Origin: Candidatus Latescibacterota bacterium
Lineage (GTDB): Bacteria; Latescibacterota; UBA2968; UBA8231
Direction of reading: 5' to 3'
DNA: 64,000 nucleotides
Assembly: GCA_965248265.1 (NCBI GenBank)
Contig: CBDFJF010000001.1
Coordinates: 544,001 to 608,000, forward strand
Both the position numbers and the translations under genes were made by a program. This document shows positions 38,487-54,299 of this stretch, one piece after another; position 1 is the first letter of the stretch, and every line of letters starts with the position of its first letter. The notes below the pieces were generated by a model, which did no database searches, was not told where the DNA came from, and saw only the letters and a list, made by a program, of their open reading frames with translations.

Positions 38487-38744
<258 letters not shown>

Positions 38745-38777: not shown

Positions 38778-39599
38778 CTAGTGATCGGGATGAGCGGCCA
38801 TGCTGATGAACAGTGCCGAGAGCAGAGTAAAAATGAAGGCTTGGATGAAACCGATGAAAATCTCAAGCATGTAGATGGCTGCTGCGAAGGCGATGGAAAA
38901 CGGGGCCAGATAATAGCTCTTGAGCATTATGATCAGACCCAGAAAAACCAGTATCGCCACGTGTCCGGCGATCATGTTGGCGAACAGACGGATGGCCAGG
39001 GCGAACGGCTTGGACAACAGGCCCATGATTTCGATCGGAATCATGATCGGCAACAGCCAGGTAGGCATTCCAGACGGCACCAGGCTGCGACAGTAGCCGA
39101 CGAATCCGTTGTTGACGATGCCGCTGACCTGAGTGACCGTGAAGGTACACAGGGCCAGCGCCGCGGTAACGCTGATGTTGCCCGTTGCCGTGGCACTGTA
39201 GGGAAACAGGCCGATCAGATTGCAAAACAGGATGAAGAAGAAAACGGTGAGCAGGTACGGCATGTATTTGCGGCCGTCCTCGCCCATGATCGGGAGCACT
39301 ACCTCGTCACGGATGAAAAGGACCATCGCCTCGAACAGGTTGGCCAGCCCGAAGGGCACGGCTTTGGGCCTGCGGAAGGCTACGGTCAACAGCAAAATCA
39401 GCAGGCTGCTGGCCACCCACATCATCAGGACGTGTTTCGAGATGGATAAATCGATGCCGTAGATTGGAGCGAACTGCGGCAAGTTGATGTGCCCGTCGAC
39501 CCAGTTGTGGGCGTTGACGAAGGGCACGTCCAGCTGCTTGGAATCGAGGATGTGCCCGATGATATCTACTTGACCGTCTGACCCTGCGTCACCCGCCAT
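38778..39599 (-). CDS. atpB: Fo ATP synthase a
   Basis: FFILFCNLIGLFP, KPFALAIRLFANMIAGH, IQAFIFTLLS. Confidence 0.97.
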   Translation of the reverse strand: MAGDAGSDGQVDIIGHILDSKQLDVPFVNAHNWVDGHINLPQFAPIYGIDLSISKHVLMMWVASSLLILLLTVAFRRPKAVPFGLANLFEAMVLFIRDEVVLPIMGEDGRKYMPYLLTVFFFILFCNLIGLFPYSATATGNISVTAALALCTFTVTQVSGIVNNGFVGYCRSLVPSGMPTWLLPIMIPIEIMGLLSKPFALAIRLFANMIAGHVAILVFLGLIIMLKSYYLAPFSIAFAAAIYMLEIFIGFIQAFIFTLLSALFISMAAHPDH

Positions 39600-39630
39600 T
39601 CAATCACTCAGCCAATATCGTCAGTGTTAT

Positions 39631-39659
39631 CTATCAGTTGATCTTGCTATCAGTTGATC
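39631..39659. repeat. Direct repeat (13-mer x2, period 16) in the atpI-atpB spacer
   Basis: CTATCAGTTGATC at 39631 and 39647. Confidence 0.75.
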
Positions 39660-39697
39660 CGGTAGACGACTGATCGTCACCTACCAAACGTTCAAAA

Positions 39698-40033
39698 TTA
39701 TGACGCTTGATTGCTCTGGTCAACCCGAGCAGGATCGATCGGCTGTCGCCTCTCGCGCTCGTTGCGGCGCACGACCGCTACGATCTCGACGATCATAGCC
39801 AGGATGCAGGTCGTCCCCAGGCCGGCGACGAAATAGCCCGGATGGATTGGCGTCACCAGGAGCAGGATGGCGGAGGCGGCCGCCATCAGCACCAGCCGGA
39901 GCGCCATGCCTCCCAGAAACACCTTGACGAAAAGTTGCGGCCGGCTGTTCCAGGTCCACCGGATACTCAACCAAGCTATGGCCCCGTTGACGAGCGCCAG
40001 CCCGATACCACAGGCCAACCCTGCCCATATCAT
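39698..40033 (-). CDS. atpI: ATP synthase protein I-like membrane protein
   Basis: Four hydrophobic segments, GMALRL motif; ATGA overlap with upstream gene; precedes atpB. Confidence 0.75.
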   Translation of the reverse strand: MIWAGLACGIGLALVNGAIAWLSIRWTWNSRPQLFVKVFLGGMALRLVLMAAASAILLLVTPIHPGYFVAGLGTTCILAMIVEIVAVVRRNERERRQPIDPARVDQSNQAS

Positions 40034-40320
40034 TCTGTTTCCTCTCCTTTGGCTTGAGGGTCCTGGTTCGTCGCAGGCCCATCGCCGTCCTCGCTGTCTG
40101 GACGGGTCAGCATCCGGTAAAGATGGTAGAAGGCCGCCGTCGCCCCAAAGAGCATGCCGGCGATCAACAGTAAGGGAGATGTAGATAGCTTGTCGTCCAG
40201 CCACCATCCTCCGATGGTCGCGATGATGATGGTAACGGCAAACTGCAATCCCGCTCCCAGCAACAGGCCGGCCTGGGCCATGCCTGCCTGTTTCTTTGTC
40301 CGCTTGTCATCAGCGGTCAT
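40030..40320 (-). CDS. atpZ: AtpZ/AtpI family protein
   Basis: GLQFA...GGWWLDDKLSTSPLLLIAGMLFG. Confidence 0.85.
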   Translation of the reverse strand: MTADDKRTKKQAGMAQAGLLLGAGLQFAVTIIIATIGGWWLDDKLSTSPLLLIAGMLFGATAAFYHLYRMLTRPDSEDGDGPATNQDPQAKGEETE

Positions 40321-40339: not shown

Positions 40340-41752
40340 TCACCAACCGATCAAGCCGGCCTGGCGAGCGGCACTTACCAATGGTTCTGACCACACACCA
40401 CCTCCTACCGAAAACAAGAGCATCAATACCAGGGCGGCGGCGAGTGGGGGGTCGACATGGACGGCCACCGACTCGCCAGCACCGGGAGGCGATAGTACTC
40501 GGACGATCAACCGCGCATACACGTAAGCCATCAGCAGACTGTTGATCAATATGCCTAGGGCGAGCCCGCCAAAGCCGGCATCCAACACCGAACTCAATAC
40601 CCAGTAGCGGGCAGTGAATCCCATCGTCGGCGGCACCCCGACCAGCGCCAGTAGCAGGACCAGCAGCGTCCCTGCCAGCAGTGGGTGTCTACGTGCCAGG
40701 CCCAGACAGTCGTCGATCTCCAGCTCCGTTTCCCGCTGACGGCAAAGCGCCAGCAGCACGGCGCAGCAACCACATACCGCCATGCCGTAAAAGGACAGAT
40801 AGAACACAACCCCGCCACCACCGCGACTGCCCATCGCGCAGAGCCCGGCCAGGGCGTAGCCGATATGAGCGAGTGAGGCGTAGCCCAGCAGGCGCTTTAG
40901 CCGGCGCTGATTCATCGCCAGCAGATTGCCCACCGTCATCGTCAACACGGCAGCAACCCAGGTCAAGGCGACCGCATACTCCTCGACCAGGTCGAAGCCG
41001 ACGGCGCACAGGCGCATCGCCACGGCAACGGCCGAAGCCGTGCCAGCGGAGGCCAGCAGCGCCGATACCGGTGCGGGCGCGCCATGAAAAACGTCGGCAA
41101 ACCACATGTGTAAAGGGACGACGCCGATGCGGGCGCCGACAGCAACCGCGAGCAGGGCCATTCCCGCCAGCGTCAACCGGCTCACGGTGACGTCCGTACC
41201 GTGATACGCGGCGACGAGTTCCGCCAGGTCGGTCGTACCGGTCGCCCCGTACACGAGGACAAGCCCGAGAAGGAAGAACGCACTGGCGACGGCTCCCGTC
41301 ATCGCCAATCGGAGACCGGCCTCCACGGCGATCCGGCTCGACTTCCCGCAGATGATGAGAGCCTGTAGGGACAGGACAGCCAGCTCGAGACTGACAAACA
41401 GCAGCAACAGGTCATTTGCGCGCACCATCACCATCATCCCCAGCACCGAACACAACAGCAGAGGATAAAACGCCAAGCCCGGGGAATCTGTGTCTGCGCC
41501 GCGGTGGCGAGAGAGAGACATGAGGATGGTCAAGCAGGCAAAGCTCAGGATCAGGACGGTGCAGTAGGAGTAAAATTCGGCGGCGAAGCTCTGTCTGAGC
41601 GCAACGGCGAGAATGGCGAGACTACCGAAAAGACTGGTATAGCCCATGCTTGCCGTCACCCTGGAGCCCAGCGACGTAAAGAAGGCTTCGAGCAGGACCA
41701 CGGCGACGATCAGAGCTGCCAGCAGTAGCTCCGGAGTTGAGAAGAAATCCAT
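40340..41752 (-). CDS. nuoN: Divergent complex I subunit N
   Basis: LFVSLEL, EAG...GA.ASAF.L.G..L.YG.TG, VPLHMW.ADV.HGAP, TMTVGNL.A..Q..LKRLLGY.SLAHIGY, G.PPT.GF. Confidence 0.9.
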   Translation of the reverse strand: MDFFSTPELLLAALIVAVVLLEAFFTSLGSRVTASMGYTSLFGSLAILAVALRQSFAAEFYSYCTVLILSFACLTILMSLSRHRGADTDSPGLAFYPLLLCSVLGMMVMVRANDLLLLFVSLELAVLSLQALIICGKSSRIAVEAGLRLAMTGAVASAFFLLGLVLVYGATGTTDLAELVAAYHGTDVTVSRLTLAGMALLAVAVGARIGVVPLHMWFADVFHGAPAPVSALLASAGTASAVAVAMRLCAVGFDLVEEYAVALTWVAAVLTMTVGNLLAMNQRRLKRLLGYASLAHIGYALAGLCAMGSRGGGGVVFYLSFYGMAVCGCCAVLLALCRQRETELEIDDCLGLARRHPLLAGTLLVLLLALVGVPPTMGFTARYWVLSSVLDAGFGGLALGILINSLLMAYVYARLIVRVLSPPGAGESVAVHVDPPLAAALVLMLLFSVGGGVWSEPLVSAARQAGLIGW

Positions 41753-43362
41753 TAAGGATTCTCCTCGATATTGACTGGATGCTGAGTGCTGTCCGTAGTC
41801 GCCGGTGCCAGCGGAGGCGCCGACTCGTCGTTTCCAACTCTGATGACGGAATACCCGGTCGTCGGCAGCCAACCGGTGATGTGGTCGACGGCCGGTGCCG
41901 TAACCTGCACTAGTGGCGCAGGGTGGAGGCCCAGAAACAGAACCAGTCCCAGGATGGCTACCGCCATCCCGGTGAGCGCGCCCCTGGAGCCGCCGGCTCC
42001 AGTCGAGTCGGCCCCAGTTGTGGCGGACAGCAGGGTGTAGGCAGCGACTGACAACCCCAGGAGCGTTGCTACAGTGTGGCCTGGAAACGCCGCGAAGCCG
42101 GCGACCATGCACAGGATAGCTCCGCTGAACGGGGCCGATGCTGGAAAGCCGAGGAAGGCGACGACAGCACTCCACCACAGCAGCGCTTGCCATCGCCCGA
42201 TCCGCTCGCCGCCCGCGGCCAGAGAAACTGAGAGGGCAAGCGCAACCAACAGCGCCCGCACGAGACCGTGACTGAGAGCATACAGGAAACTGCCCTGGAT
42301 ACCCTCACCCGTGAGCGTCCACAGGCCCAGCAAAATGACTCCGTTGAAGCCCAGGCACAGGTAAGCCAGCCGGCGACGCAAGGAAGAGCGCTGCCCGAGA
42401 GCAAGAGCCCCACCGTACAGAGCAACCCAGGCGGCCAGTGCACCTCCCCAGTGAGCACCGATCTGCTCGACGGGTTCGGGACACAGTGGCATGGCAAACC
42501 GCAGTATCACGTAAGTGGCTATCAGGGGCCAGCCGCCAACGACCACGACCGCGACCAGCGGATTTTTCGTGCGTAGCGCCAATAGATCCACCAACCAACC
42601 ATGAAACGGCGCGATCGGCAGCTGGATGACCAGGTACAATCCGAAGGCGGCGGCGATCCACATCTGCGCCTCAGCGGGCAGCGCAAGCGTCAGCAACTGC
42701 TCTGGATCGAGTTGGGGGCTGCCTGTCTTTTGCTGAGCCGTCGAGCGCACCGACAGGGCTGCAGCCAACAGCGCCAGTGTGGCCGCGTAGTTAAAGAGGA
42801 GAAACCTCAATGCGACCCGGCGGCGCTCACTGCTGCGCACGCCACCCCCTGCCTCGTCATCCTTGGCCATACAAAGAGCGAAAAACAGAGCGAAAACGGC
42901 GGCCTGAGAGAACAGCGTCAGCAGCAGGAGGTTGGCCGCGACGAAGACGCCCTGGAGCGATGCCATAGCCACCAGCAATCCCATGCTTGCCCCCCTACCG
43001 CCGACGGAATTTGCTGACATGGCGATGAGAAACAGGAGTGGGATGACAACCAGCGCGAAGACATTGAGATGGTCGATCCCCAGCTGCAGGTCGAGGCCCA
43101 GTGAAGGCGCCCATGGTACGCTGCCGGCGACCCCCACGGCCTGCGATCCTGCTGATCCGAACAATTCAACGGTTGAGTGGAACTGTTCCGGTAGATCCAG
43201 GAAGTTGCCAACAGCCAGTAACCCTAACGCCAATTCCAGAAAGGTCACGGCCAGCAGGACCAGACGGCGGCCCTGCCCCGACGCGGGTGGCAGGAGAGCG
43301 ACAACGGCTGCGCCGATCAGAGGCACGACCACGAAACTCGACAGGATCAGGGCGGGCATCAT
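41752..43362 (-). CDS. nuoM: Highly divergent complex I subunit M
   Basis: PWAPSLG...LGID, A.RF.LF, P..PFHGWL.D, LRFAMPL.P, YGG.LA..Q, SHGL; position between nuoL and nuoN with ATGA/TAATG coupling. Confidence 0.85.
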   Translation of the reverse strand: MMPALILSSFVVVPLIGAAVVALLPPASGQGRRLVLLAVTFLELALGLLAVGNFLDLPEQFHSTVELFGSAGSQAVGVAGSVPWAPSLGLDLQLGIDHLNVFALVVIPLLFLIAMSANSVGGRGASMGLLVAMASLQGVFVAANLLLLTLFSQAAVFALFFALCMAKDDEAGGGVRSSERRRVALRFLLFNYAATLALLAAALSVRSTAQQKTGSPQLDPEQLLTLALPAEAQMWIAAAFGLYLVIQLPIAPFHGWLVDLLALRTKNPLVAVVVVGGWPLIATYVILRFAMPLCPEPVEQIGAHWGGALAAWVALYGGALALGQRSSLRRRLAYLCLGFNGVILLGLWTLTGEGIQGSFLYALSHGLVRALLVALALSVSLAAGGERIGRWQALLWWSAVVAFLGFPASAPFSGAILCMVAGFAAFPGHTVATLLGLSVAAYTLLSATTGADSTGAGGSRGALTGMAVAILGLVLFLGLHPAPLVQVTAPAVDHITGWLPTTGYSVIRVGNDESAPPLAPATTDSTQHPVNIEENP

Positions 43363-45197
43363 CGGCTCGTCAACCACACAACAGCCACAAGAGTGATGGC
43401 AGCGCTCAGCACGGCGGCCGTGACGGCCGAGGAAAAACGGCCGTCGTGCAGGGTTCCGATCAACCAACCGCAGACGCGAACGCCTGCGCCGATCCCGCGC
43501 AGGCACAGCAACTCGACGGCCACATCGACGAACGTCGATACCCGGTCCGCCAACCAACAGACGGACCGCGCAATGGCCGTGTAGAGATCGTCGAACAGCA
43601 ATCCATTTCCTAGCAGATGCCTCAGGAGGTGCGGCGGACGGCCGGTGACACCCCTGGGGCTCGGTCTCAGGCGCCCCACCAGGACCCACGCCCATCCACA
43701 TCCGGCGAGCGTGAGCACGACGCAGGCGATTCCGACCGTGGACTCCACCAGCACCGCCGAGGGCATCGCGCCGACGTCAGCGAAAGCCCGCGGGATTGCA
43801 GCCGCCAGACGGATCGGAGAAGCCTGGTGACTGATTAACATCGCAATGACAGCAAGACCGGACAGACAGGCCATGAAGGCGACAGGAACTGTGGTCGAGC
43901 CCTCGCGGATCACAGTACGGGGATTGACACCCGTGAAAATGCCGAACAGCAGGCGGAAAAGGTGGAGGGAGGTAAGCAGCACGACCAGGCTTCCCAGAAT
44001 CGCGAAGGGAGTGCTCTCTGCCGCAGCTGCCTCCAGGAACGACAGCTGCACCCAGAAACTCGCGAACGGGGGCAACACCAACACGATGGTGGCTACCAGA
44101 GTGAACCGGTACGCCGTCTTCAAGTGGACCCGCAGACCACCAAGTGTGGACAGCTCAAAGGCCGCCGAACTCGCGCGCTCGGCCAGGCCGGTGGTGAGCA
44201 GGAGTACACATTTGACACAGGTATGAATCGACAACTGCAGCAATGCCACGGCCGGCATTCCCATGGACGCGAGGGTCAGGGCGATCGCGCCCTGGCTTGA
44301 GGTGGAATAGGCCAGCGACCGGCGGGGGTCGCGAGCGGCCGCGGCACAAGCCGCCATCAGCGCGGCACCGGCCAATCCAATGCCCGACAAACCTTCCGGA
44401 GACATCAGCTGCCAGGATCGAACCAGCAGGTAGAGACCGAGCGGGACCGCGAAGACGACCTGGATGAAGGTGGCTGCCGGCGTCCCTAACGACGCGCTTC
44501 GCTCCAACCAGGGATGCAACGGCCACATGCCAGTCCGGGCAATACCAGCCACCGCAATCGACAGGCCGATGACGGCAGTTGTCGAACCCCCCAAGACCTC
44601 CACGAAGGCGACGGAACCCAGGTGCAAGAGCATGAACACGAGCGCGCTCAGGAGTCCCAGCGAGGCGAGGCCCTGGAAGACCAAAGTCCGCGCCGCGGCC
44701 GGACCGTCGCCGCGCAAACGGACCAGCAGCCAGGTCGACAACGCGACTCCCTCCCAACCGGCATACAGCATACCGTAATTGTTGGCGATCACCGCCAAGA
44801 GTGCACAGGACACTCCGAAGTGGACGACGGCGTCCTGGCGGCGCTGCTGATGGAGTTCCTCAGTCTCAAATGCCGATTTGCATACATGGACCGCCAGGTT
44901 GGTCGAGGCCACGACGAAGGCTGTGATCGCGGACATTGGATCGATGAGAAAACCGGCCGTTATGACGGTGTCCTGCCCCAGGACGATCCAGGTCATGACA
45001 TCCCAGTTTGCTGTCACCGCTGTACCGCAGCTCAAGACCAGAAGCACCAGCGCACACAGCCAGGTGAGGGCGGCAGTATTGATACCACGCATGCGCAACG
45101 CGCCTGTAGATCGCGCGCCCGCTGTGGCGACGGCTCCTGCCAGTGGCGTGAGCAGAAGACCGTATGCGGCTATTTTCGTTAGCAGAACCAACTGCAT
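43359..45197 (-). CDS. nuoL: Divergent complex I subunit L
   Basis: GFLIDPMS, ANN..MLYAGWEGV, PLHPWL, LAYST.SQ, H...K..L.L, LGGLR. Confidence 0.88.
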   Translation of the reverse strand: MQLVLLTKIAAYGLLLTPLAGAVATAGARSTGALRMRGINTAALTWLCALVLLVLSCGTAVTANWDVMTWIVLGQDTVITAGFLIDPMSAITAFVVASTNLAVHVCKSAFETEELHQQRRQDAVVHFGVSCALLAVIANNYGMLYAGWEGVALSTWLLVRLRGDGPAAARTLVFQGLASLGLLSALVFMLLHLGSVAFVEVLGGSTTAVIGLSIAVAGIARTGMWPLHPWLERSASLGTPAATFIQVVFAVPLGLYLLVRSWQLMSPEGLSGIGLAGAALMAACAAAARDPRRSLAYSTSSQGAIALTLASMGMPAVALLQLSIHTCVKCVLLLTTGLAERASSAAFELSTLGGLRVHLKTAYRFTLVATIVLVLPPFASFWVQLSFLEAAAAESTPFAILGSLVVLLTSLHLFRLLFGIFTGVNPRTVIREGSTTVPVAFMACLSGLAVIAMLISHQASPIRLAAAIPRAFADVGAMPSAVLVESTVGIACVVLTLAGCGWAWVLVGRLRPSPRGVTGRPPHLLRHLLGNGLLFDDLYTAIARSVCWLADRVSTFVDVAVELLCLRGIGAGVRVCGWLIGTLHDGRFSSAVTAAVLSAAITLVAVVWLTSR

Positions 45198-45509
45198 TTA
45201 GCCCTCGAACTCCGGCGATCGCTTGTCGAGATCGGTGTCACCACCGCGACGGTGGCGCAGGCACAGCAATGACAGCAGGACGACGGCTTGCCCTACACCG
45301 GCGGCCAACGTGATCAGGGCCATCACCTGGCCGGAATCGTCAGCATGAAAGTGTGCGAAGGCTGCGAGGGTGACGACGGCTCCCAACCCCATCAGCTGAA
45401 ACCCCAGGATGACGGCCAGAACGTTGCGCCGCAGGACGATGCCCGTTAGCCCGAGCCCGAACAGGAGCAAACCAAAAAGCGTAGTCACCTGCAGGATCGC
45501 CGCGCTCAT
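45198..45509 (-). CDS. nuoK: Divergent complex I subunit K
   Basis: LFGLGL.GIV.RRN, GQVMAL; 103 aa, 3 TM; operon position. Confidence 0.88.
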   Translation of the reverse strand: MSAAILQVTTLFGLLLFGLGLTGIVLRRNVLAVILGFQLMGLGAVVTLAAFAHFHADDSGQVMALITLAAGVGQAVVLLSLLCLRHRRGGDTDLDKRSPEFEG

Positions 45510-46093
45510 GGACCCTCCCCGGTACTGGCAGGATCATCTACCCGATTGGATTCGACAATCGCCAGCGTGGTGGCGAAAAGGACGAAGCCGATGACGATGA
45601 ATGACACCAAGTGTCTCCTCACCAGTAGACCGGTGAGTGACTCGCTATCGGCAACCACGCCATCGGCGACGATGGCGGCAGTGGTCTCCCCTTGGACGGC
45701 GACCGTTGGAGCTATCCCTGGAGTCGCCGCAATGACACCGAGCGCGACTACCAGGATTGCGGCCGCGCACAAGATCAGCCTTCGCCTCTTGGAATCCGAG
45801 GCGGCTCGCGGACCTTGCCGCGAGTGTCCCACGAGCGGAGTGCCCGATTCTTCTTGATTGACAACCATGTGACCTACGAGATAGACGGCGGCGATGACAC
45901 CACCCTGCATCAGGACTAGCCCGATGGCAACCAGTGGCGCATTCGCGAAGATCCCCACGATGCCGGCTGCGGCCAGGACCACCACGCCGAGAGCGAGAGC
46001 AGACCGAGTCACCGATCGACTGGTGGCGACGACGACGGCGGCGGCCACGGCGAGTGCTGCCAGTAACACGTACAGGACCAGACCGGAGATCAC
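45506..46093 (-). CDS. nuoJ: Highly divergent complex I subunit J
   Basis: Five hydrophobic segments, VV.TSRS.TRSAL.L, ANAPLVA; GTGA overlap with nuoH stop and ATGA overlap with nuoK. Confidence 0.78.
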   Translation of the reverse strand: MISGLVLYVLLAALAVAAAVVVATSRSVTRSALALGVVVLAAAGIVGIFANAPLVAIGLVLMQGGVIAAVYLVGHMVVNQEESGTPLVGHSRQGPRAASDSKRRRLILCAAAILVVALGVIAATPGIAPTVAVQGETTAAIVADGVVADSESLTGLLVRRHLVSFIVIGFVLFATTLAIVESNRVDDPASTGEGP

Positions 46094-47115
46094 GCGTTTG
46101 TCATCATTTTCAGGAGCCGCGAACCGACCGCTACCATCAGCAGATTGGCAAAAGCCAGCGGCAGCAGGTATTTCCAGCCGACGGTGGCTGCGCGCTCGAG
46201 TACCAGCGACGGCAGGCTCGAACGGACCCAGAGAAACAGCAGGACGACAGCGGCGGTTTTGATGACGGTTGCGCTGGCCTGCACATGCGGCACTTCCCCG
46301 TTGCCGACGAGTCCGGGAATGTGCCACCCCCCCAGGTACAGGGTGACGAGGAAGGCGCTGGCGGCTATCAGATGCACCCGCTCCGCCACCAGCATCAAGG
46401 CCAAGTGGCGGCCGCTGTAGAGGCTGCCGAGGCGGCCGCCTCTGGTCGGGTCTCGCTGGGTGAGTGGACGCCAGGGGATAATCTGCAGGAGGGCGGCGAA
46501 GCAGACGACGAAACCCAACGGTTGAACCATCAGGTTCCAGGCGAGGATGACGTGTCCGTCGATCGCTGTCTGGGCGGCGATGATCTGGTCAAAACGAGCT
46601 GTTCCGCCGGCCGTTATGACTCCGAAAACGGCGACCCCGAGCGCCAGGTAACAGCTCAGCTGGCGCGCCACCAGACGCAGTCCTCCGAAATCACGAAAGC
46701 CTCCTATTTGAGCGCGGGTTCCGGCGATCAGACCAACCTGGAGAGCGATGAAGCCCAGGGCCATGACGTAGACGACCCCCAGGCTGGTGTGCCCTCCCCA
46801 CGCCGCCAGCGCTGTCCAGAGCCCACCACCATCACTCTGGCAAAACGGAACCACGGCGAGGGCGGTGAACGAAATGGCCAACAACAGAGGGGCGGCCCAC
46901 TTGCCGCCAGCTCCAGCCGCGGCCCGTGGCGATCTCTTTGACGCCAGCTTGATCAGATCGGCTACGGGGCGCAATCCGAAACCCGCCCGCTGGCGCCTGC
47001 CCGGCGCGGTCCGGTACTCAGCGAGCATGATCGCCATGACTCCGATCGCCGTACATAACAGCAGCGCGCCGTTGGAGCCCAGCGCGTTGATGAGTGGAAG
47101 GTCCTGGAAGGCCAA
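46090..47115 (-). CDS. nuoH: Highly divergent complex I subunit H
   Basis: GLRPVADLIKL, GGLR..A.QLS, QPLGF, YSG...L...AE, TLYLGGW, KT...L.LW.R.SLP, GWK.LLPLAFANL. Confidence 0.87.
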   Translation of the reverse strand: MAFQDLPLINALGSNGALLLCTAIGVMAIMLAEYRTAPGRRQRAGFGLRPVADLIKLASKRSPRAAAGAGGKWAAPLLLAISFTALAVVPFCQSDGGGLWTALAAWGGHTSLGVVYVMALGFIALQVGLIAGTRAQIGGFRDFGGLRLVARQLSCYLALGVAVFGVITAGGTARFDQIIAAQTAIDGHVILAWNLMVQPLGFVVCFAALLQIIPWRPLTQRDPTRGGRLGSLYSGRHLALMLVAERVHLIAASAFLVTLYLGGWHIPGLVGNGEVPHVQASATVIKTAAVVLLFLWVRSSLPSLVLERAATVGWKYLLPLAFANLLMVAVGSRLLKMMTNA

Positions 47116-47116
47116 T

Positions 47117-48796
47117 TCAGTCGGTATCCGCCGGCCGCTGTCTCGACAGCCAGTCTCGTTTGTTGTGATCGTCAACGGCCAGAAAACCACGTCGTTGCAG
47201 AGCGGTGGACCATCCACCGCCGTAGGCCTGTGCGATACCTGCCGCACCGAGCCCCGCACCCGGGTCCCCCTGATTCTGATCGAGGACAGTCTCGGCTTCC
47301 GCTATGACGGAGTTCGGCGCCGCGAATCGAACCGCCACTCGTTTGAGAATCTCGATATCGTCCAGGCACCCGGGAGCGGGTCCAACGGCCTTTTGCAACC
47401 GCTGAAGGTGCCCGTCGGCGTTGGTCATGGTACCGGCTTTTTCTGGGAAACTGCATCCTGGCAGCACGACCCGCGCCAGGGCGGCCAGTTCGTCCTGCAG
47501 GATATCCAGGACGACCAGATTGTCGGCAACAGCACCCAGGGCGCTGAGCTCGATGTCGTCCGGCCGAACGCCCGGTCCCCCACCCACAACGAAGGCCGCA
47601 CCGATCAATCCCTCCTGCAGTGCTTCCACCATCTGATCCATCCCCAGCAAACTCTGGCCCAGCTCTGCCGCCACCCCTTTGATGCCATGCGAATTCGCCG
47701 CCTTGTCGCCTCGAATCGTGAATCCACTCGGGTAGATCGTGTCGCCTTCCGTAGCGAGGGACTGCCGCAAGGATATCAATTCGGTGTCCCAGCCTTGAGC
47801 AAGGCGAATCAACAGACGGGCTTCCTCGTTCGTCATCTGGCCGCCGAGTATGACTCCGATCTGCTGTCCCTGAGAGCGGCAGGCGGTAAAAGCGAGATGA
47901 ATGGCCTCGCACGCGTCCTCCCAAGATGCGACAACGTCTGCAACGCCATCAGCTGACTGGATCAGGGGATGCGTCAACCGCTCCGAACTGTGGACGTAGT
48001 GCCATCCGTGACGTCCATCATCGCACATCCAGTACTCGTTGACATCCATGTTCACGCGGGGCTTGAGTCTCTTCACCTGATCGCCGGCAACATCGATGCG
48101 GATGTTGCATCCGGAGGAACAGCCGGTGCAGATCGAGTCGACACCGCGCAATCTCCAGGCCGGCTGCAGCTGGAAACGCTTGTCGATCAGAGCACCGGCC
48201 GGACACAGATCCACGGTGTTGCCGGACAGCCGATTGTCCATCTTTGACCCGGGAAAGGTAGCGACTTCGAGGCGGTCACCTCGATCGAACATCGACAGCT
48301 CTTCCGTACCGGTGACCTCCGCGCAGAAACGGACGCAACGGGTACAATGGATGCATTTCCCCGGGTCTATGGCAACGTGATCTCCCAGATCCCGAATTTC
48401 ACTCGCGCCCTTTTCGGGAAGCACGTATGGACCGTCGCCGCCGTAGGCGAAGCTGAATTCCTGTAACTCGCACTCTCCCGAATTGTCGCACGATGGACAT
48501 TCCAATGGGTGCCGCACCAGCTGGAACTCAAGCGCTGTAGCTCGCGCCTGCCTTACGGCCTCCGATTCCGTGCGCACCACCATGCTGTCCTGTACCTGCG
48601 CATCGCACGCCGTCGTCAAACGCCAGCCGTCGTCGTCTCGCACCTCTATCGCACATAGCCGACACAGTGCCGGAGTAGACAGGGCCGGATGAAAACACAG
48701 ATGGGGGACGAAAATTTCAGCCTCGAGAGCGCCCATGAGCAGATTGGCCCCGTCCTCGATCTCCAGCGCTCTGCCGTCCCATGTTATTCGGGCCAT
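47117..48796 (-). CDS. nuoG: Complex I subunit G (short form, all Fe-S motifs present)
   Basis: PHLCFH..CRLC..TAC; HPLECPSCDNSGECELQ; CIHCTRCVRFC..DLCPAG; CTGCSSGC..MCDDG. Confidence 0.93.
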   Translation of the reverse strand: MARITWDGRALEIEDGANLLMGALEAEIFVPHLCFHPALSTPALCRLCAIEVRDDDGWRLTTACDAQVQDSMVVRTESEAVRQARATALEFQLVRHPLECPSCDNSGECELQEFSFAYGGDGPYVLPEKGASEIRDLGDHVAIDPGKCIHCTRCVRFCAEVTGTEELSMFDRGDRLEVATFPGSKMDNRLSGNTVDLCPAGALIDKRFQLQPAWRLRGVDSICTGCSSGCNIRIDVAGDQVKRLKPRVNMDVNEYWMCDDGRHGWHYVHSSERLTHPLIQSADGVADVVASWEDACEAIHLAFTACRSQGQQIGVILGGQMTNEEARLLIRLAQGWDTELISLRQSLATEGDTIYPSGFTIRGDKAANSHGIKGVAAELGQSLLGMDQMVEALQEGLIGAAFVVGGGPGVRPDDIELSALGAVADNLVVLDILQDELAALARVVLPGCSFPEKAGTMTNADGHLQRLQKAVGPAPGCLDDIEILKRVAVRFAAPNSVIAEAETVLDQNQGDPGAGLGAAGIAQAYGGGWSTALQRRGFLAVDDHNKRDWLSRQRPADTD

Positions 48797-48797
48797 G

Positions 48798-50156
48798 TTA
48801 GTAACGCACGCTTACGCTATCCGGCACCCTGAACCCGGGGTCTTTCAGCTCCTGCATTGGGCAGGCTCCTGCCGTAGCGTGCGCCTCGAATTCGGCTCTG
48901 AACGAATGGAAGAAATCCTGCACGGTCCAAGCGAAGGCGCTACCGAATCCACACAGCGCCGTGGTCTGCTCAGGCCGGAGCCGGGGGGCGATCTGACGCG
49001 CCACGGATTCGATCAGCTTCACCTCGTCGGCGTCACCCCCCTTACCCTCCTCCAGTCGTTGCAGCAACTGGAGGATCCAACTCGAGCCCTCCCTGCACGG
49101 CGCGCACTGCCCGCACGATTCCACCGCATAGAAGCGCATCATCTGGATCGCCGTGTCCACCATGCAGGTGGTATCATCCAGGACGATGACCGCGCCGTTG
49201 CCGAAGGCTCCATCGATCGGTCCTGCGCCGGGTATCGCCCATTGTTGGGGGTCGAGATCGACATCGAGCTGCTGTGGCTGCAGAACCGTCGACAGTGTGC
49301 CACCGACGATGACCGCCTTGAGCGAGCGACCATCGGGTACACCACCGGCGTAGTCGTCTACCAACTCCCTCAGCGTCGCCTCGCCCAAAGCCAGTTCGTA
49401 CAAACCTGGACGACGCACGTGCCCGCTGACACAAAACACGCACGTACCTGGATAGGCATGCGTGCCGATGGTCCTGAACTCGACCGCACCGGCTGACAGA
49501 ATGTCAGGTAGATAGGCCAGGGTGCCGACGTTGTGGACAACGGCCGGCTCGCCAAAGAGGGTGCGTGGGGACGACGCCGGTGCCGGCTCAGGTCGTCCCC
49601 CTTCGAGCCCCTGTAGCAAGGCCGATTCCTCGGCGGCAATATGGGCACCACCCCCTGGATGCACGTAGACATCCAGGTCGAAACCACTGCCGGCAATATC
49701 ACGCCCCAGCCAGTTGGCTTTGTAGGCCTCGTCTATTGCCTGGTTGATGACGGTGGTTGGACGGGCAAGTTCACCTCTCACGCATAGATAGGCGACCCGT
49801 GCGCCAAGAGCTCGGGCGGCGATGAGTATACCTTCGAGAAGGCGATGAGGTACGCGCTCCATGAGCTTGCGGTCACGAAACAGACCCGGATCGGCATCGT
49901 AGGCATTGACACACAGGTAGGGCGGCGGTGCCGACGTCATCGCCGGCTGCGCCGACCGCCGCCACTTATCCGCGACCGGCTCCCAACCGCCGCCACGACC
50001 GCGCAGACCACTGGCGGCGACTTCCTCCAGCAGCTGCTGTTGGGTCATGGCCAACGCCTTGGCCGCTCCCCGATAGCCGCCGTGGGTGAGGTAGGCCTGG
50101 ATGCCCTCGATGTCGGGGATCTCGATATTCTTGAGGAGCAGTCTGTGCTCAGCCAT
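48798..50156 (-). CDS. nuoF: Complex I subunit F with altered flavin/NADH pocket
   Basis: SGLRGRGG, DR.LME..PH.LLEG, EE.ALL..LEG, SGHVRRPG.YE, ESCGQCAPCREG, LCGFG. Confidence 0.92.
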   Translation of the reverse strand: MAEHRLLLKNIEIPDIEGIQAYLTHGGYRGAAKALAMTQQQLLEEVAASGLRGRGGGWEPVADKWRRSAQPAMTSAPPPYLCVNAYDADPGLFRDRKLMERVPHRLLEGILIAARALGARVAYLCVRGELARPTTVINQAIDEAYKANWLGRDIAGSGFDLDVYVHPGGGAHIAAEESALLQGLEGGRPEPAPASSPRTLFGEPAVVHNVGTLAYLPDILSAGAVEFRTIGTHAYPGTCVFCVSGHVRRPGLYELALGEATLRELVDDYAGGVPDGRSLKAVIVGGTLSTVLQPQQLDVDLDPQQWAIPGAGPIDGAFGNGAVIVLDDTTCMVDTAIQMMRFYAVESCGQCAPCREGSSWILQLLQRLEEGKGGDADEVKLIESVARQIAPRLRPEQTTALCGFGSAFAWTVQDFFHSFRAEFEAHATAGACPMQELKDPGFRVPDSVSVRY

Positions 50157-50160
50157 GGCC

Positions 50161-50667
50161 TCAGTCCTCGATACGCTCTACGGTACGCTCTAGTAATTGA
50201 GTCAGTTTCTCGAGACTCAGGCTTTCATGCAGCTCGTCGTCTACGAGCATCACCGGAGCCGTGCTGCAGGATGCCAGACACGGAACACGTTCGAGGGTGA
50301 AATGGCCGTCCAGGGCCGTGTCCCCCGGCTCAATGCCGAGCGCGACACGCAGTTGGCCCAGAACCGTTTCAGCACCCATCAAGCGGCAGGAGAGGCCATC
50401 GCACACCCGCAGCCGGCTTCTACCAGCCGGCTTGTCAGTCCTCAGCAGGGGATAGAAACTGGCCACGCCGGCAGCTCGAACTGGAGGTATTGCCAACAGG
50501 TCGGCCACGTGGCCGATCACAGACGGTGAGCACCAGCCCCACTCTCGCTGTGCCAGCAGCAGGACCGGAAGAAGCGCACCGCCAGCCTCGGGATAGCGCT
50601 CCCGGATGCGCTGGTACTCGGCCTCCGTGTCCGGACCGAAAGCCAATTTGTCGATGGTCTGCTCCAT
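50161..50667 (-). CDS. nuoE: Complex I subunit E
   Basis: RYP....LLPVL..AQ..WGW, VASFY, VCDGLSC, CLASCSTAP. Confidence 0.93.
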   Translation of the reverse strand: MEQTIDKLAFGPDTEAEYQRIRERYPEAGGALLPVLLLAQREWGWCSPSVIGHVADLLAIPPVRAAGVASFYPLLRTDKPAGRSRLRVCDGLSCRLMGAETVLGQLRVALGIEPGDTALDGHFTLERVPCLASCSTAPVMLVDDELHESLSLEKLTQLLERTVERIED

Positions 50668-52319
50668 CACCGGTCCATCTCCGCAGGCACCACATTGAGA
50701 CTGCACAGAGCCTGGCGCGCTTGTGCCATCGGCAGATCGGCGACCAGGCCTCCGGCGACCTGAAAGTTCAACAACGAAGGCGAGCGCAGGTGGAGCCGGT
50801 AGGGCCGGTCGGTGCCGTCTGCGCACAAGAACACGCCGAGCTCGCCATTCGGACTCTCGGTCGCTTGGTAACACTGGGCGCCCGCCGGCAGGCGAAGGCC
50901 ATGCCCCTCCGTCCACAACTGCATGTGGCGGATCATTACCTCCACGCGTTCGCGCACTTGCTCGGACGTGCCCGGAAAAACGCGGGCGTCCTCGGTGCGC
51001 CAGGCACCGGTCGGCATCGACCGCAAAGCCCGTTCGATGAGGCCGGTACTCTCCACCATCTCCTCCATGCGCACCCGGCAGCGATCCAGCGCGTCGCCGT
51101 TCGAGCCAACGGGCACCTCGAAATCCAGCTCGCCATACGCCAGGTACGGCGTCGTCTTGCGCAGATCCGACTCCGTGCCGCAGGCACGCTGGACCGGACC
51201 ACTCAAACCCCATTCGGCGGCTTCATGGGCGCTCAGCGCTGCCACTCCGTCGACCAGGTCACGCCACAGGCGATTGCCCATGAGCTGCTTGTGCAACCGT
51301 GCCACCGCAACTCGTATCGACCGCGACAAGGCCAGCGCGCAGTTCATGAAATCATCCGGAAAATCGGCTGCCTGTCCCCCGATAGCCAGTAATCCGGTAC
51401 CGGTACCCACACCTCTCAACCGACCCATCGTCTCCAGTACTGCAGCACGCAGCTGCATGGCTTGTCGCCAAACTCTGTCGGCGCCGGCCGTCTCGGTTTG
51501 GATCGACAGCCAAGCCAGGTGTCCCGCGAGGCGGGAAAGCTCGGCGATGACGACACGCTGAAAGTTGCCTCTCGGTGGCACCTCGATTCCCAGCATCGCC
51601 TCGACCGCCAGTGCGAGGGTCAAGCTGGCGGCGTGAGGGGACTGGTCGTTCAGGCGTTCGCACACAACCATGTTCTGTATACAAGTCAACGACTCGGAGA
51701 GCTTCTCGATGCCACTGTGGGCAAATCCAGGCACCGGAGCAGCACGCACCACCCGGCCGGCCACCACCTCGAGGCGCATGCGCAGTGTCGGTATCGGCGC
51801 GACCAGAGCCGCGGTGTCCGGGCCAGTTGGCACAGGATTACCGGTTTCGCCCTCACCGAGCAAGGGATAGCGCTTGCGCAGCGGGTGAACGGAGGAGGGG
51901 GAGTGCAGGATCAGGGCTCGGGTCGTGGATCTGCCGGTAAAGCGGACCCCGAACATCTCCGCCACCTCACGCTCCTGCCAGTCTGCGCCCGGAAACAGAT
52001 CGGTGACGCTGGCCAGCGTGGTTTCTTCTGGATCGAAATCAGCACTCAATTGCAAACACGCAAAGGGTGTCTGGACTGACCGCAACTGGTAGACTATCCG
52101 CAGAGGCGCCGCCTCACCGGCGAGAGCGGACAGATCGACTGCAGTCATATCTGCGAGGGTGTAGCTTCCGTCCGTCCTCAGCGAGGTGAGCACCTCGTGC
52201 ACGGCATCCGCTTCCAGTACCAGCAATGTGCGTCCAGCAACTTCACGGATCTCGGCCGTCGGAAAGTTGACATGCAAGGTGGACAGCACGGTGTCGGCCT
52301 CGGCGAGTGTTTCAGCCAT
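50667..52319 (-). CDS. nuoCD: Fused, divergent complex I subunit C/D
   Basis: C part: D.TAVD, ADWQEREVAEMFGVRF.G, HPLRKRYPL. D part: H.GIEK, AELSRL..HL, GLSGP..RA.G...DLRK..PY..Y, ESPNGELG, PYR...RSPS, EMDR. ATG 52319 overlaps nuoA. Confidence 0.92.
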   Translation of the reverse strand: MAETLAEADTVLSTLHVNFPTAEIREVAGRTLLVLEADAVHEVLTSLRTDGSYTLADMTAVDLSALAGEAAPLRIVYQLRSVQTPFACLQLSADFDPEETTLASVTDLFPGADWQEREVAEMFGVRFTGRSTTRALILHSPSSVHPLRKRYPLLGEGETGNPVPTGPDTAALVAPIPTLRMRLEVVAGRVVRAAPVPGFAHSGIEKLSESLTCIQNMVVCERLNDQSPHAASLTLALAVEAMLGIEVPPRGNFQRVVIAELSRLAGHLAWLSIQTETAGADRVWRQAMQLRAAVLETMGRLRGVGTGTGLLAIGGQAADFPDDFMNCALALSRSIRVAVARLHKQLMGNRLWRDLVDGVAALSAHEAAEWGLSGPVQRACGTESDLRKTTPYLAYGELDFEVPVGSNGDALDRCRVRMEEMVESTGLIERALRSMPTGAWRTEDARVFPGTSEQVRERVEVMIRHMQLWTEGHGLRLPAGAQCYQATESPNGELGVFLCADGTDRPYRLHLRSPSLLNFQVAGGLVADLPMAQARQALCSLNVVPAEMDR

Positions 52320-52713
52320 CGGAATCCGTGACGGGCGAGCGCTCTTCCCAGTCGAAGGCCCGTCGACGGGCAGCGTACACGAAGGCGCAGAGCAGGACGA
52401 TGATGAAAACGGCAACGACACCGAGCACGGCCGCATCACCATCCAGCAACTGATTGAACCCGAGAGCCCATGGCAACAGCAGGACGAGCCCTGCTTGAAA
52501 AACCGCTGCGATGAGCGCGATTCGGTAGAAGGGCAGGATTTGAGCCGGTGTGGACTGCGTTTGAGAGTCCCGCGCGGACGCCGTGTCATCGGCTCTATCG
52601 CGGCTGAGCAAGCGTGCCCCGAACAAGAAAGCCGCCGCAAACAGAAGGATTGCGACGGCTGAGATCACGGCAGCTGGAATTTCGATTGCGACCTCGTAGG
52701 CGGGAAGAGCCAC
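52312..52713 (-). CDS. nuoA: Highly divergent complex I subunit A
   Basis: Three TM; FYRIAL..VF....LLPWA, FVYA.RRRAFDWE; first gene of the nuo run. Confidence 0.82.
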   Translation of the reverse strand: MALPAYEVAIEIPAAVISAVAILLFAAAFLFGARLLSRDRADDTASARDSQTQSTPAQILPFYRIALIAAVFQAGLVLLLPWALGFNQLLDGDAAVLGVVAVFIIVLLCAFVYAARRRAFDWEERSPVTDSDG

Positions 52714-53060: not shown

Positions 53061-54299
53061 CTAACCGAAGTCGTCGAAGCGGATCATCTCTTCTTCCACT
53101 CCGAGCTCGTCCAGCATGTTCATCACTGCTTGCAGCATCATCGGTGGACCGCACAGATAGTACTCGATGTCTTCCGGAGCCGCGTGGGAGCTCAGATAGT
53201 GGTCGAGGACGACCTGGTGAATGAAACCCTGGTACCCGGTCCAGTTGTCTTCTGGCAGAGGCTCCGACATGGCCACATGCCACGAGAAGTTCGGGAACTC
53301 CTCGGCGATAGCCTCGAAGTGGTCCTCGTAGAACAATTCCTTGGAGGATCGAGCCCCGTACCAATACGACACCTTGCGACCGGTCCTCAAGGTGTGGAAC
53401 AGGTGAAAAATGTGCGACCGCAACGGTGCCATGCCAGCGCCGCCACCGATGTAGACCATCTCGCGCTCGGTTTCCTGGATGAAGAACTCCCCGTAGGGAC
53501 CGGAAATGGTAGCCTTGTCTCCAGCCTTCAGATTGAACACGAAGGAAGACACGATGCCGGGGTTGACCTTCATCCAGCCGCCGATGCTCGGATCGAATGG
53601 CGGCGTGGCGATACGGATGTTGAGCATGACGATGTTGCCCTCGGCCGGGTGATTCGCCATCGAGTAGGCACGAAAAACCGTATCGGCGTTCACCGTTCGC
53701 AGATCCCACACCTTGAAACGGTCCCAGTCGCCGTGAAAACGCTCGTCGACTTCGAAATCCCTGAAGGAGCACTGGAAGGACGGTACTTCTATTTGGATGA
53801 AGCCGCCGGATTCGAAATTCAGGTTCTCGCCTTCTGGTAATTTGAGGACGAGTTCCTTGATAAAGGTTGCGACGTTCTTATTGGAGATGACCTCGCATTC
53901 CCAGCGTTTGACCGAGAACACCTCGGGCGGCACTTCGATCTTCAAGCTCTCCTTGACGGCGACCTGACATGAGAGCCGATCCCCTTCGCGGGCTTCACGC
54001 TTGGTGATCTGTTCCAGCTCCGTGGCCAGAATCTCACCGCCCCCCTCGTGTATCTTCACGACACACTGGCCACAGGTACCGCCCCCACCGCATGCCGATG
54101 AAACGAAAAGCTGGTTATCTGCCAGCACGTTGAGCAGCTTGCCGCCCGCTGGCGTGGTCAGGGTGCGTTCATCGTTGATGACGATCTCGACGTCGCCGCT
54201 GGCAACCAGCTTGGAACGGGCTGCCAGGATGACGCCCACCAGCGCCAGCACGACCATCGTGAACATGCCGACACCGGCGGTTATTTCCACGGCCATCAT
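53061..54299 (-). CDS. nqrF: Na+-NQR subunit F
   Basis: [40 protein letters not shown]. Confidence 0.98.

Follow-up and report, generated by a model that had tools for sequence, protein, structure and literature searches.

We analysed a complex I-like operon in a 64,000-nucleotide stretch of the genome of a Candidatus Latescibacterota bacterium (assembly GCA_965248265.1, contig CBDFJF010000001.1, forward-strand positions 544,001 to 608,000), referred to below as the window and numbered from its first letter. The operon consists of 11 contiguous or overlapping genes on the minus strand, nuoA-CD-E-F-G-H-J-K-L-M-N, all recognised by Pfam and, with NuoC and NuoD fused, encoding 12 subunit homologues in canonical order. 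It sits between the operon of the Na+-translocating NADH:quinone oxidoreductase (Na+-NQR) upstream and the F1Fo ATP synthase operon downstream, and all 11 open reading frames (ORFs) are intact, with neither frameshift nor stop. The genes of the operon, followed by its two flanks, are as follows:

40340..41752, minus strand: nuoN-like, about 470 amino acids (PF00361, 183.8 bits)
41752..43362, minus strand: nuoM-like, 535-536 amino acids, start at 43362 or 43359 (PF00361, 52.5 bits)
43359..45197, minus strand: nuoL-like, 612 amino acids (PF00361, 76.4 bits)
45198..45509, minus strand: nuoK-like, 103 amino acids (PF00420, 61.7 bits)
45506..46093, minus strand: nuoJ-like, 195 amino acids, GTG start (PF00499, 35.9 bits)
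46090..47115, minus strand: nuoH-like, start uncertain (PF00146, 121.5 bits)
47117..48796, minus strand: nuoG-like, short form, 559 amino acids (Pfam domains)
48798..50156, minus strand: nuoF-like, 452 amino acids (Pfam)
50161..50667, minus strand: nuoE-like (PF01257, 136.9 bits)
50667..52319, minus strand: fused nuoCD-like, 550 amino acids (PF00346, 221.5 bits; PF00329, 88 bits)
52312..52713, minus strand: nuoA-like, 133 amino acids (translation and alignment to E. coli)
53061..54299, minus strand: nqrF, final gene of the Na+-NQR operon, upstream flank and outside the complex (translation)
38778..40320, minus strand: start of the F1Fo ATP synthase operon, downstream flank (two small membrane proteins, then the a subunit)

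Pfam scores are weak for membrane subunits, with 52.5 bits for M, 76.4 for L and 35.9 for J. Two genes are missing from the series: PF01058 (nuoB) has no match anywhere in the window, and E. coli NuoI used as a tblastn query gives no match in the window either. As nuoCD begins right after nuoA, and nuoH abuts nuoJ directly, there is no room for nuoB or nuoI at these places.

Residues at the proton, quinone and nucleotide sites

The E. coli K-12 nuo proteins (locus L003) served as reference, and residue positions are given in E. coli numbering. The window proteins were aligned by MAFFT with those of E. coli and of a canonical nuo operon in the same genome, the alignments were repeated with 11 relatives, and the mapping was checked with HMMER, by phmmer of NuoK against 3rko_K and by a NuoM family profile against the E. 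coli chain 7p61_M. Across NuoA, H, J, K, L, M and N, the window carries a replacement at 25 of the 31 canonical charged or polar sites. The positional orthologues of two genomes from sister families (G030 and G028) retain all 31, so the change goes far beyond ordinary divergence.

Both glutamates of NuoK have become glutamine (E36Q, E72Q), in agreement with the phmmer alignment to 3rko_K. NuoL carries D178S, K229R, H254Q, K305R, H334Q, K399Q and D400L while keeping E144, H338 and K342; NuoM carries E144Q, K234Q, K265L, H322F and E407A and keeps H348, a mapping that was the least certain of all and was reproduced by the family profile aligned to 7p61_M. In NuoN, K217R, K247T and K395R stand beside a retained E133 and H305. 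NuoA shows D79Q and E81G, NuoJ Y59 is replaced by M or Q depending on the alignment, and NuoH has E157Y and D213T together with loss of the acidic residues 216-228 in the loop between transmembrane helices (TM) 5 and 6. Gln occupies 8 of the replaced sites, against a background of 2.5%. Of the features that mark a complex I, the Glu/Lys/His axis in NuoL, M and N, the NuoK glutamate pair and the acidic residues of NuoA and NuoH are no longer intact.

The first-pass annotation of this DNA, working by eye, had listed substitutions in NuoK, L, M, N, J and A, and the computed alignments (MAFFT, HMMER profile and phmmer) bear out every one of them; nor do these alignments restore the charged residues, the 3rko_K and 7p61_M mappings being in agreement. 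Some details need amending. NuoM K265 and E407 and NuoN K247, described there as absent, are indeed lost, through substitution by L, A and T rather than by deletion, and NuoJ Y59, likewise called absent, is replaced by a residue whose identity varies with the alignment. The range assigned to the list, 40340-46093, does hold nuoN, M, L, K and J, whereas nuoA lies outside it at 52312-52713. NuoL D178S and D400L are additions to the list, and the first-pass annotation also overlooked the lack of nuoB and nuoI in the operon and the family-wide extent of the trait.

As a separate observation, the canonical NuoM of the same genome (C1:258522-260195; C numbers denote contigs) has L, not Lys, at the K234 position, and the NuoM proteins of the canonical operons in G023 and G012 (L088, L089) have W at K234 and N at K265. 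Residues other than Lys at K234 in canonical operons may be either an alignment artefact or a natural variant.

Replacement extends to the quinone site. In NuoCD, the quinone-site loop residues read H220G, H224A, Y273D and D325T (L003 numbering), the NuoD His and Tyr being the quinone-ligating residues and the Asp their partner. They are also replaced in most of the degenerate relatives, with the Tyr kept in G004 and G008. The flavin mononucleotide (FMN) and NADH motifs of NuoF are altered as well, to GRGGGWE, NAYDADPG and IAAEES: GRGG is retained, with GWE in place of AGF, YDADPGL in place of DESEPGT and AAEE in place of CGEE. In G017, G005 and G019 these motifs are destroyed.

The Cys and His ligands of the iron-sulphur (Fe-S) clusters of NuoE, F and G are all kept in the window (24/24), made up of 16 ligands in NuoG, four Cys in NuoF (4Fe-4S) and four Cys in NuoE (2Fe-2S). 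The relatives keep nearly all of them too, the exceptions being one Cys-to-Arg change in G008 and a contig-edge gap in G004. The antiporter-like fold, checked for NuoM, is retained in prediction, as the first-pass annotation had supposed: an AlphaFold2 model of the NuoM-like protein from a 19-row alignment reached pLDDT 81 and pTM 0.85, showed helix breaks at residues 247-255 and 404-410, corresponding to both broken helices (TM7 and TM12), and matched solved NuoM chains in Foldseek with TM scores of 0.78-0.83.

Given the loss of the NuoK glutamate pair, the NuoA and NuoH acids, the NuoL uptake residues and the quinone ligands, redox-driven proton pumping of the canonical kind by the window complex appears, from the sequence, very unlikely.

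Lone genes, positional orthologues and descent

Candidates for the two missing subunits are encoded elsewhere in the genome. A lone nuoB-like gene at C2:3819245 specifies 142 amino acids with all four cluster cysteines and lies directly after a gene for an apbC/Nbp35-like Fe-S carrier (C2:3818589-3819673, L002/L072); the same adjacency, apbC-like followed by nuoB-like, is present in 4/4 family loci (relatives L073-L075). Ind1, the mitochondrial relative of the apbC/Nbp35 type, is a complex I assembly factor. A lone nuoI-like gene (C2:3326499-3326933, L078) encodes 144 amino acids with both 4Fe-4S motifs and is flanked by two unrelated genes. Of the 10 relatives with a verified operon, 9 have a match to this NuoI-like protein of at least 77 bits at another place in the genome, and G013 reaches 60 bits, while the canonical in-operon NuoI of its own genome scores only 33 bits. 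The genomes with the lone nuoI-like gene are largely those whose operon lacks nuoB and nuoI; in G011 and G026 the match stands without a verified operon. We infer that B and I may be supplied from elsewhere in the genome, in which case their lack in the operon need not interrupt the Fe-S chain.

Two ideas concerning these genes were set aside. The lone NuoB-like protein could not be treated as a specific partner of the operon, its identities of 41-56% overlapping those of in-operon NuoB (38-42%), and the argument from co-occurrence uses the NuoI-like gene only. The notion that an operon without B or I means no N2 chain was dropped once lone genes of both types had turned up and relatives with canonical residues proved to share the architecture. 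Separately, the lone-NuoB-like matches in G005 (C1:2187-2606) and G019 (C96:143413-143817), whose operons are the most degenerate of all, contain one in-frame TAG each.

The architecture of the window operon (no nuoB or nuoI, fused nuoCD, short nuoG, a position beside atpB and/or nqrF) was found in 10 relatives, namely G004, G005, G008, G013, G017, G019 and G021 of its own family and G028, G030 and G040 of two sister families. The operon adjoins nqrF in G008, G013, G017, G005 and G019, and AtpB in these five as well as in G030 and G028. A NuoF tree places the operons lacking B and I in a single clade (support 99), and the degenerate copies from the window's family make up a monophyletic group (support 100) with longer branches. 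The operons of G030 and G028 keep 31/31 canonical sites, and G040 loses only two NuoN sites among the 29 recovered. Bit scores against the E. coli M and L proteins are 335-392 for the sister-family operons (340-392 in G030 and G028), compared with about 86-104 for the window. Every operon copy in the window's family is degenerate: G004, G013 and G008 have 18-21 of 25-28 recovered sites replaced, and in G017, G005 and G019 (L087, L090, L091), where the operon lies between nqrF and atpB, an E. coli query misses NuoL, K, J and H. The window operon descends from an ancestor with canonical residues. G030, G028 and G040 resemble the window operon in gene order, fused CD, short G, atpB neighbour, NuoF clade and lone nuoI-like gene, with the difference that G030 and G028 retain the canonical sites and the window does not.

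Degeneration does not depend on a canonical backup, since in G008, a one-contig genome, the sole NuoD is that of the degenerate operon; its sole NuoB is of the lone type. An earlier candidate finding, that the NuoM-like protein has no orthologues (best non-self identity 35% in 40 relatives), was rejected when synteny showed the distant matches to be positional orthologues. In G040, a further observation is that extra antiporter-like subunits follow nuoM (L086, 17679-19900 and beyond), giving six consecutive PF00361 matches on contig C3.

Conservation and selection at the replaced sites

A search of a 5.8-billion-protein collection for close orthologues returned a small clade, with nothing between it and sequences of 24-32% identity. 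Clade members comprise 6 NuoM-like (59-88%), 6 NuoL-like (55-90%) and 9 NuoK-like (70-91% identity) proteins; the metagenomic L, M and K orthologues (55-91% identity) are mostly full length, with P0004, P0007 and P0049 partial. A metagenome scan yielded 54 loci, of which only 2 are close and both short (L018, L019), and a genome-contig scan gave only 24-29% relatives. Close orthologues therefore cover NuoK, L, M and N, with none for NuoA, H and J.

Within this clade the new residues are largely fixed. NuoK Q36 and Q72 occur in 10/10 members; NuoL E144, S178, R229, Q254, Q334, H338 and K342 in 7/7, as does the pair R305 and Q254 of the uptake pathway (K305R, H254Q); NuoM Q144, L265, F322 and H348 in 5/5; and the key residues of NuoN are identical in the metagenomic locus L018. 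Variable positions are NuoL 399 (Q/L/Y) and 400 (L/V) and NuoM 234 (Q/M/V) and 407 (A/F/V). Overall, of the 17 former key sites in K, L and M, 13 do not vary, as compared to 434/1252 invariant columns (35%; hypergeometric P about 5e-4).

Across genera, the replacements differ. NuoK E36 reads E, G, G, Q or Q, NuoL E144 reads T, A, V, E or E, and NuoM E144 reads E, E, E, G or Q, while the replaced sites in other genera of the family hold G, A, V, T, L, Y, N, P or W. Some changes are common to several lineages, with L K229R in four and N K395R in six, and N K217R is shared within the window's subclade. A NuoK-clade profile run against 1.84 billion cluster representatives gave 859 matches at E <= 0.001, of which only two, probably the window clade itself, reached E <= 1e-26. 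Among the best 150 of the 859, a list skewed towards query-like sequences, 104 have both glutamates and 46 lack at least one, 14 being Q/Q. The Atlas clusters nearest to the NuoM-like protein are 'hypothetical' Planctomycetota proteins, and PF00361 is recognised in only 47-80% of their members; judged by these clusters, the window's family would probably belong to Planctomycetota.

The first-pass annotation had proposed selection for changes, repeatedly to Gln or Arg, that would close the channels with the fold kept, or switch the transported ion. The excess of Gln in the window speaks for sealing, as do the fixation of NuoK Q36/Q72 and NuoL R229/Q254/Q334 in the clade, the sharing of L K229R and N K395R by several genera and the Q/Q pairs among the best 150 NuoK representatives. 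Yet the expectation that the same Gln and Arg would be fixed across orthologues holds mostly within the clade and fails across genera, where G, A, V, T, Y, N or P stand at the same sites; even among clade members, three of the sites hold differing uncharged residues, and the changes are all one-step or conservative. Moreover, the loss extends to the NuoD quinone ligands, the NuoH loop and E-channel and, in part, the NuoF motifs, and sealing would not require the quinone site and E-channel to be lost.

For a change of ion, no new conserved intramembrane acidic or Na+-type residue set was found. The neighbouring ATP synthase offers an indirect indication of the same kind: its c subunit (window 38487-38708) has the motif LVEGVA around the carboxylate, with no Ser/Thr after the Glu. 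Ser/Thr next to the c-ring carboxylate is typical of Na+-binding ATP synthase rings; going by this motif, the ATP synthase adjoining the NQR looks H+-coupled. We regard directed sealing or ion change as very improbable.

Nei-Gojobori ratios of nonsynonymous to synonymous substitution (dN/dS) were 0.117 for N and 0.217 for M against L018, and 0.215 for L and 0.171 for M against L019, with no stop or frameshift in the window relative to the L018/L019 orthologues across dS 0.5-1.6. Ratios of 0.12-0.22 without stops or frameshifts show that the window genes are under purifying selection. Between the canonical-residue orthologues of G030 and G028, dN/dS is 0.11-0.13 for L, M and N, and the window-clade values (0.17-0.22 at comparable saturation) are about 1.5-2x as high; dS is near saturation for L019, G030/G028 and G005/G019, and those ratios are rough. 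These values suggest that selection on the operon is mildly relaxed rather than absent. Frameshifts, stops and dN/dS near 1, the marks of a pseudogene, are not seen in the window operon, and the earlier view that the changes are not random decay agrees with the intact ORFs, the dN/dS values, the invariance of the former key sites, the recurrence of Gln and the predicted NuoM fold.

Interpretation and comparison with other systems

Taken together, this analysis suggests that the operon is probably a vertically inherited relic of complex I that has ceased to pump protons and that mildly relaxed purifying selection retains for another role, which may be uncoupled electron transfer or structural. 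An ancestral operon with canonical residues would have lost complex I catalysis family-wide, including the Glu/Lys/His axis of L, M, N and K, the uptake Lys and junction His of NuoL, the NuoA and NuoH acids and the NuoD ligands, and lineage-specific drift under structural constraint would have followed the catalytic loss. The conservative nature of the replacements (Gln, Arg, small, hydrophobic) would be explained because buried polar positions must still pack, while proton chemistry is no longer needed. Most likely, a folded, Fe-S-bearing complex assembles, possibly with the lone NuoB-like and NuoI-like proteins, and its electron transfer is uncoupled from proton translocation. Energy would then be conserved by the neighbouring Na+-NQR and also, in this genome, by a canonical complex I, whose operon A-B-C-D-H-I-J-K-L-M-N (11 genes) lies at C1:251967-261629; a separate nuoEFG-like set is found on C2.

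Several observations weigh against this reading. NuoL E144, H338 and K342 and NuoN E133 and H305 are retained in the window, so that a residual or unconventional proton path may persist. The invariance test takes no account of relatedness or of the generally stronger conservation of the transmembrane core, and G017, G005 and G019 align poorly, making their residue calls uncertain. G011 has lone B-like and I-like genes with no NuoD or PF00361 match in a genome that is 84% complete, which weakens the proposed link between the lone genes and the operon. No copy of the operon was found in 13/24 family relatives (NuoF matches of only 36-42% or none), and it is in that sense dispensable. In G021 (L083), nuoCD is split into two overlapping ORFs, a TAA lies inside the nuoF match and nuoH is disturbed, which may reflect either pseudogenisation or sequencing error; the same-genus G008 has intact genes at these places. 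Lastly, in the G008/G021 pair the nuo genes have dN/dS of 0.12-0.45, with nuoA and nuoE inflated by stop-to-stop ORFs, compared with 0.031 for nqrF.

The last three of these points also favour slow pseudogenisation, in which NQR (and canonical complex I) took over and a functionless operon is decaying, the conservative changes being its first steps. To the patchy distribution, the G021 lesions and the 4-14x excess of nuo over nqrF dN/dS can be added that all catalytic sites are eroding, including the NADH/FMN motifs in G017, G005 and G019. Set against this are the intact window ORFs and mostly full-length metagenomic L, M and K orthologues, the freedom from stops and frameshifts over the dS range sampled, a dN/dS only modestly above that of canonical-residue orthologues, the complete set of Fe-S ligands and the 13/17 invariant former key sites. 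We consider such decay improbable.

Comparison with known systems sharpens the picture. The window operon shares with canonical complex I (NDH-1; E. coli Nuo13, with fused NuoCD) the subunit order, the Fe-S ligands and the predicted NuoM fold, but lacks nuoB and nuoI and has replaced the 25/31 sites and the NuoD quinone ligands. With the Mrp Na+/H+ antiporter it has in common the PF00361 antiporter-like subunits, whereas it carries NuoCD, E, F, G and H and none of the Mrp-specific domains (MrpB, C, E, F, G) by Pfam. A complete Mrp operon is present in the same genome at C2:2932000-2939300 (L079), with three PF00361 subunits, a NuoK-like MrpC, MnhB, MbhD/E, MnhG and MrpF, and a similar three-subunit PF00361 cluster was seen in G008 and G021. 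In Nitrospina gracilis, NUO-2 is described as an additional complex I of atypical make-up, whose nuoB is encoded apart from the remaining nuo genes and which has extra Fe-S clusters and is proposed for reverse electron flow (PMC3578206); the displaced nuoB is alike, whereas loss of pumping residues is not reported for NUO-2 there. A comparative study of planctomycetes mentions that automatic annotation found only nuoL in an NQR-bearing strain (PMC11588811). A literature search gave no account of a complex I with neutralised residues or without nuoB/nuoI in these bacteria, supplementary tables not being covered.

A precedent for loss of residues with the fold kept comes from menaquinone-type complex I, where, as a preprint describes, pump modules are silenced in M. 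smegmatis ND4 and in E. coli ND4 and ND2, and evolution is proposed to tune stoichiometry by silencing antiporter-like modules (10.64898/2026.10.08.757549). On this model the window complex could be an extreme case that conserves energy at low stoichiometry through one remaining unconventional proton path, to which the retained NuoL and NuoN residues, a still-polar axis and persisting purifying selection lend some weight. The likeness lies in the loss of uptake residues in antiporter-like subunits; the difference is that in the silenced systems the ND5/NuoL pathway, central axis, E-channel and quinone site are intact, whereas the window alters all of them. In the same source the uptake triad of NuoL is reported to be universal among solved structures, and E. 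coli NuoL K305Q and H254F to be inactive, whereas the window and its clade have K305R and H254Q; the NuoK glutamate pair, NuoA D79/E81, NuoH E157 and the NuoD quinone ligands are gone as well. For NuoN, K247A and K395A leave 6-17% of activity in E. coli and K217R leaves 58-88% (PMC13073174). Low-stoichiometry energy conservation is in our view quite improbable.

A final alternative concerns what the relic still does. The assembly could be a 'pseudo-complex I', catalytically silent but still selected, without NADH, quinone or proton chemistry and with a role outside bioenergetics, such as membrane scaffold or partner of the flanking Na+-NQR or ATP synthase. We hold this to be unlikely; if true, it would provide a natural control for the complex I mechanism with all modules off.

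Under the preferred reading of a non-pumping relic, the operon matters because the charged axis of complex I has been treated as near-universal and its mechanism has been argued largely from single point mutants. Here almost all axis residues are replaced at once in proteins that remain intact and under selection across several genera, and sisters with canonical residues and the same architecture complete a natural series from fully canonical to fully stripped. Comparing its members could show which residues folding, assembly, electron transfer and pumping each require. For these bacteria themselves, annotated nuo genes need not mean a proton-pumping NADH dehydrogenase.

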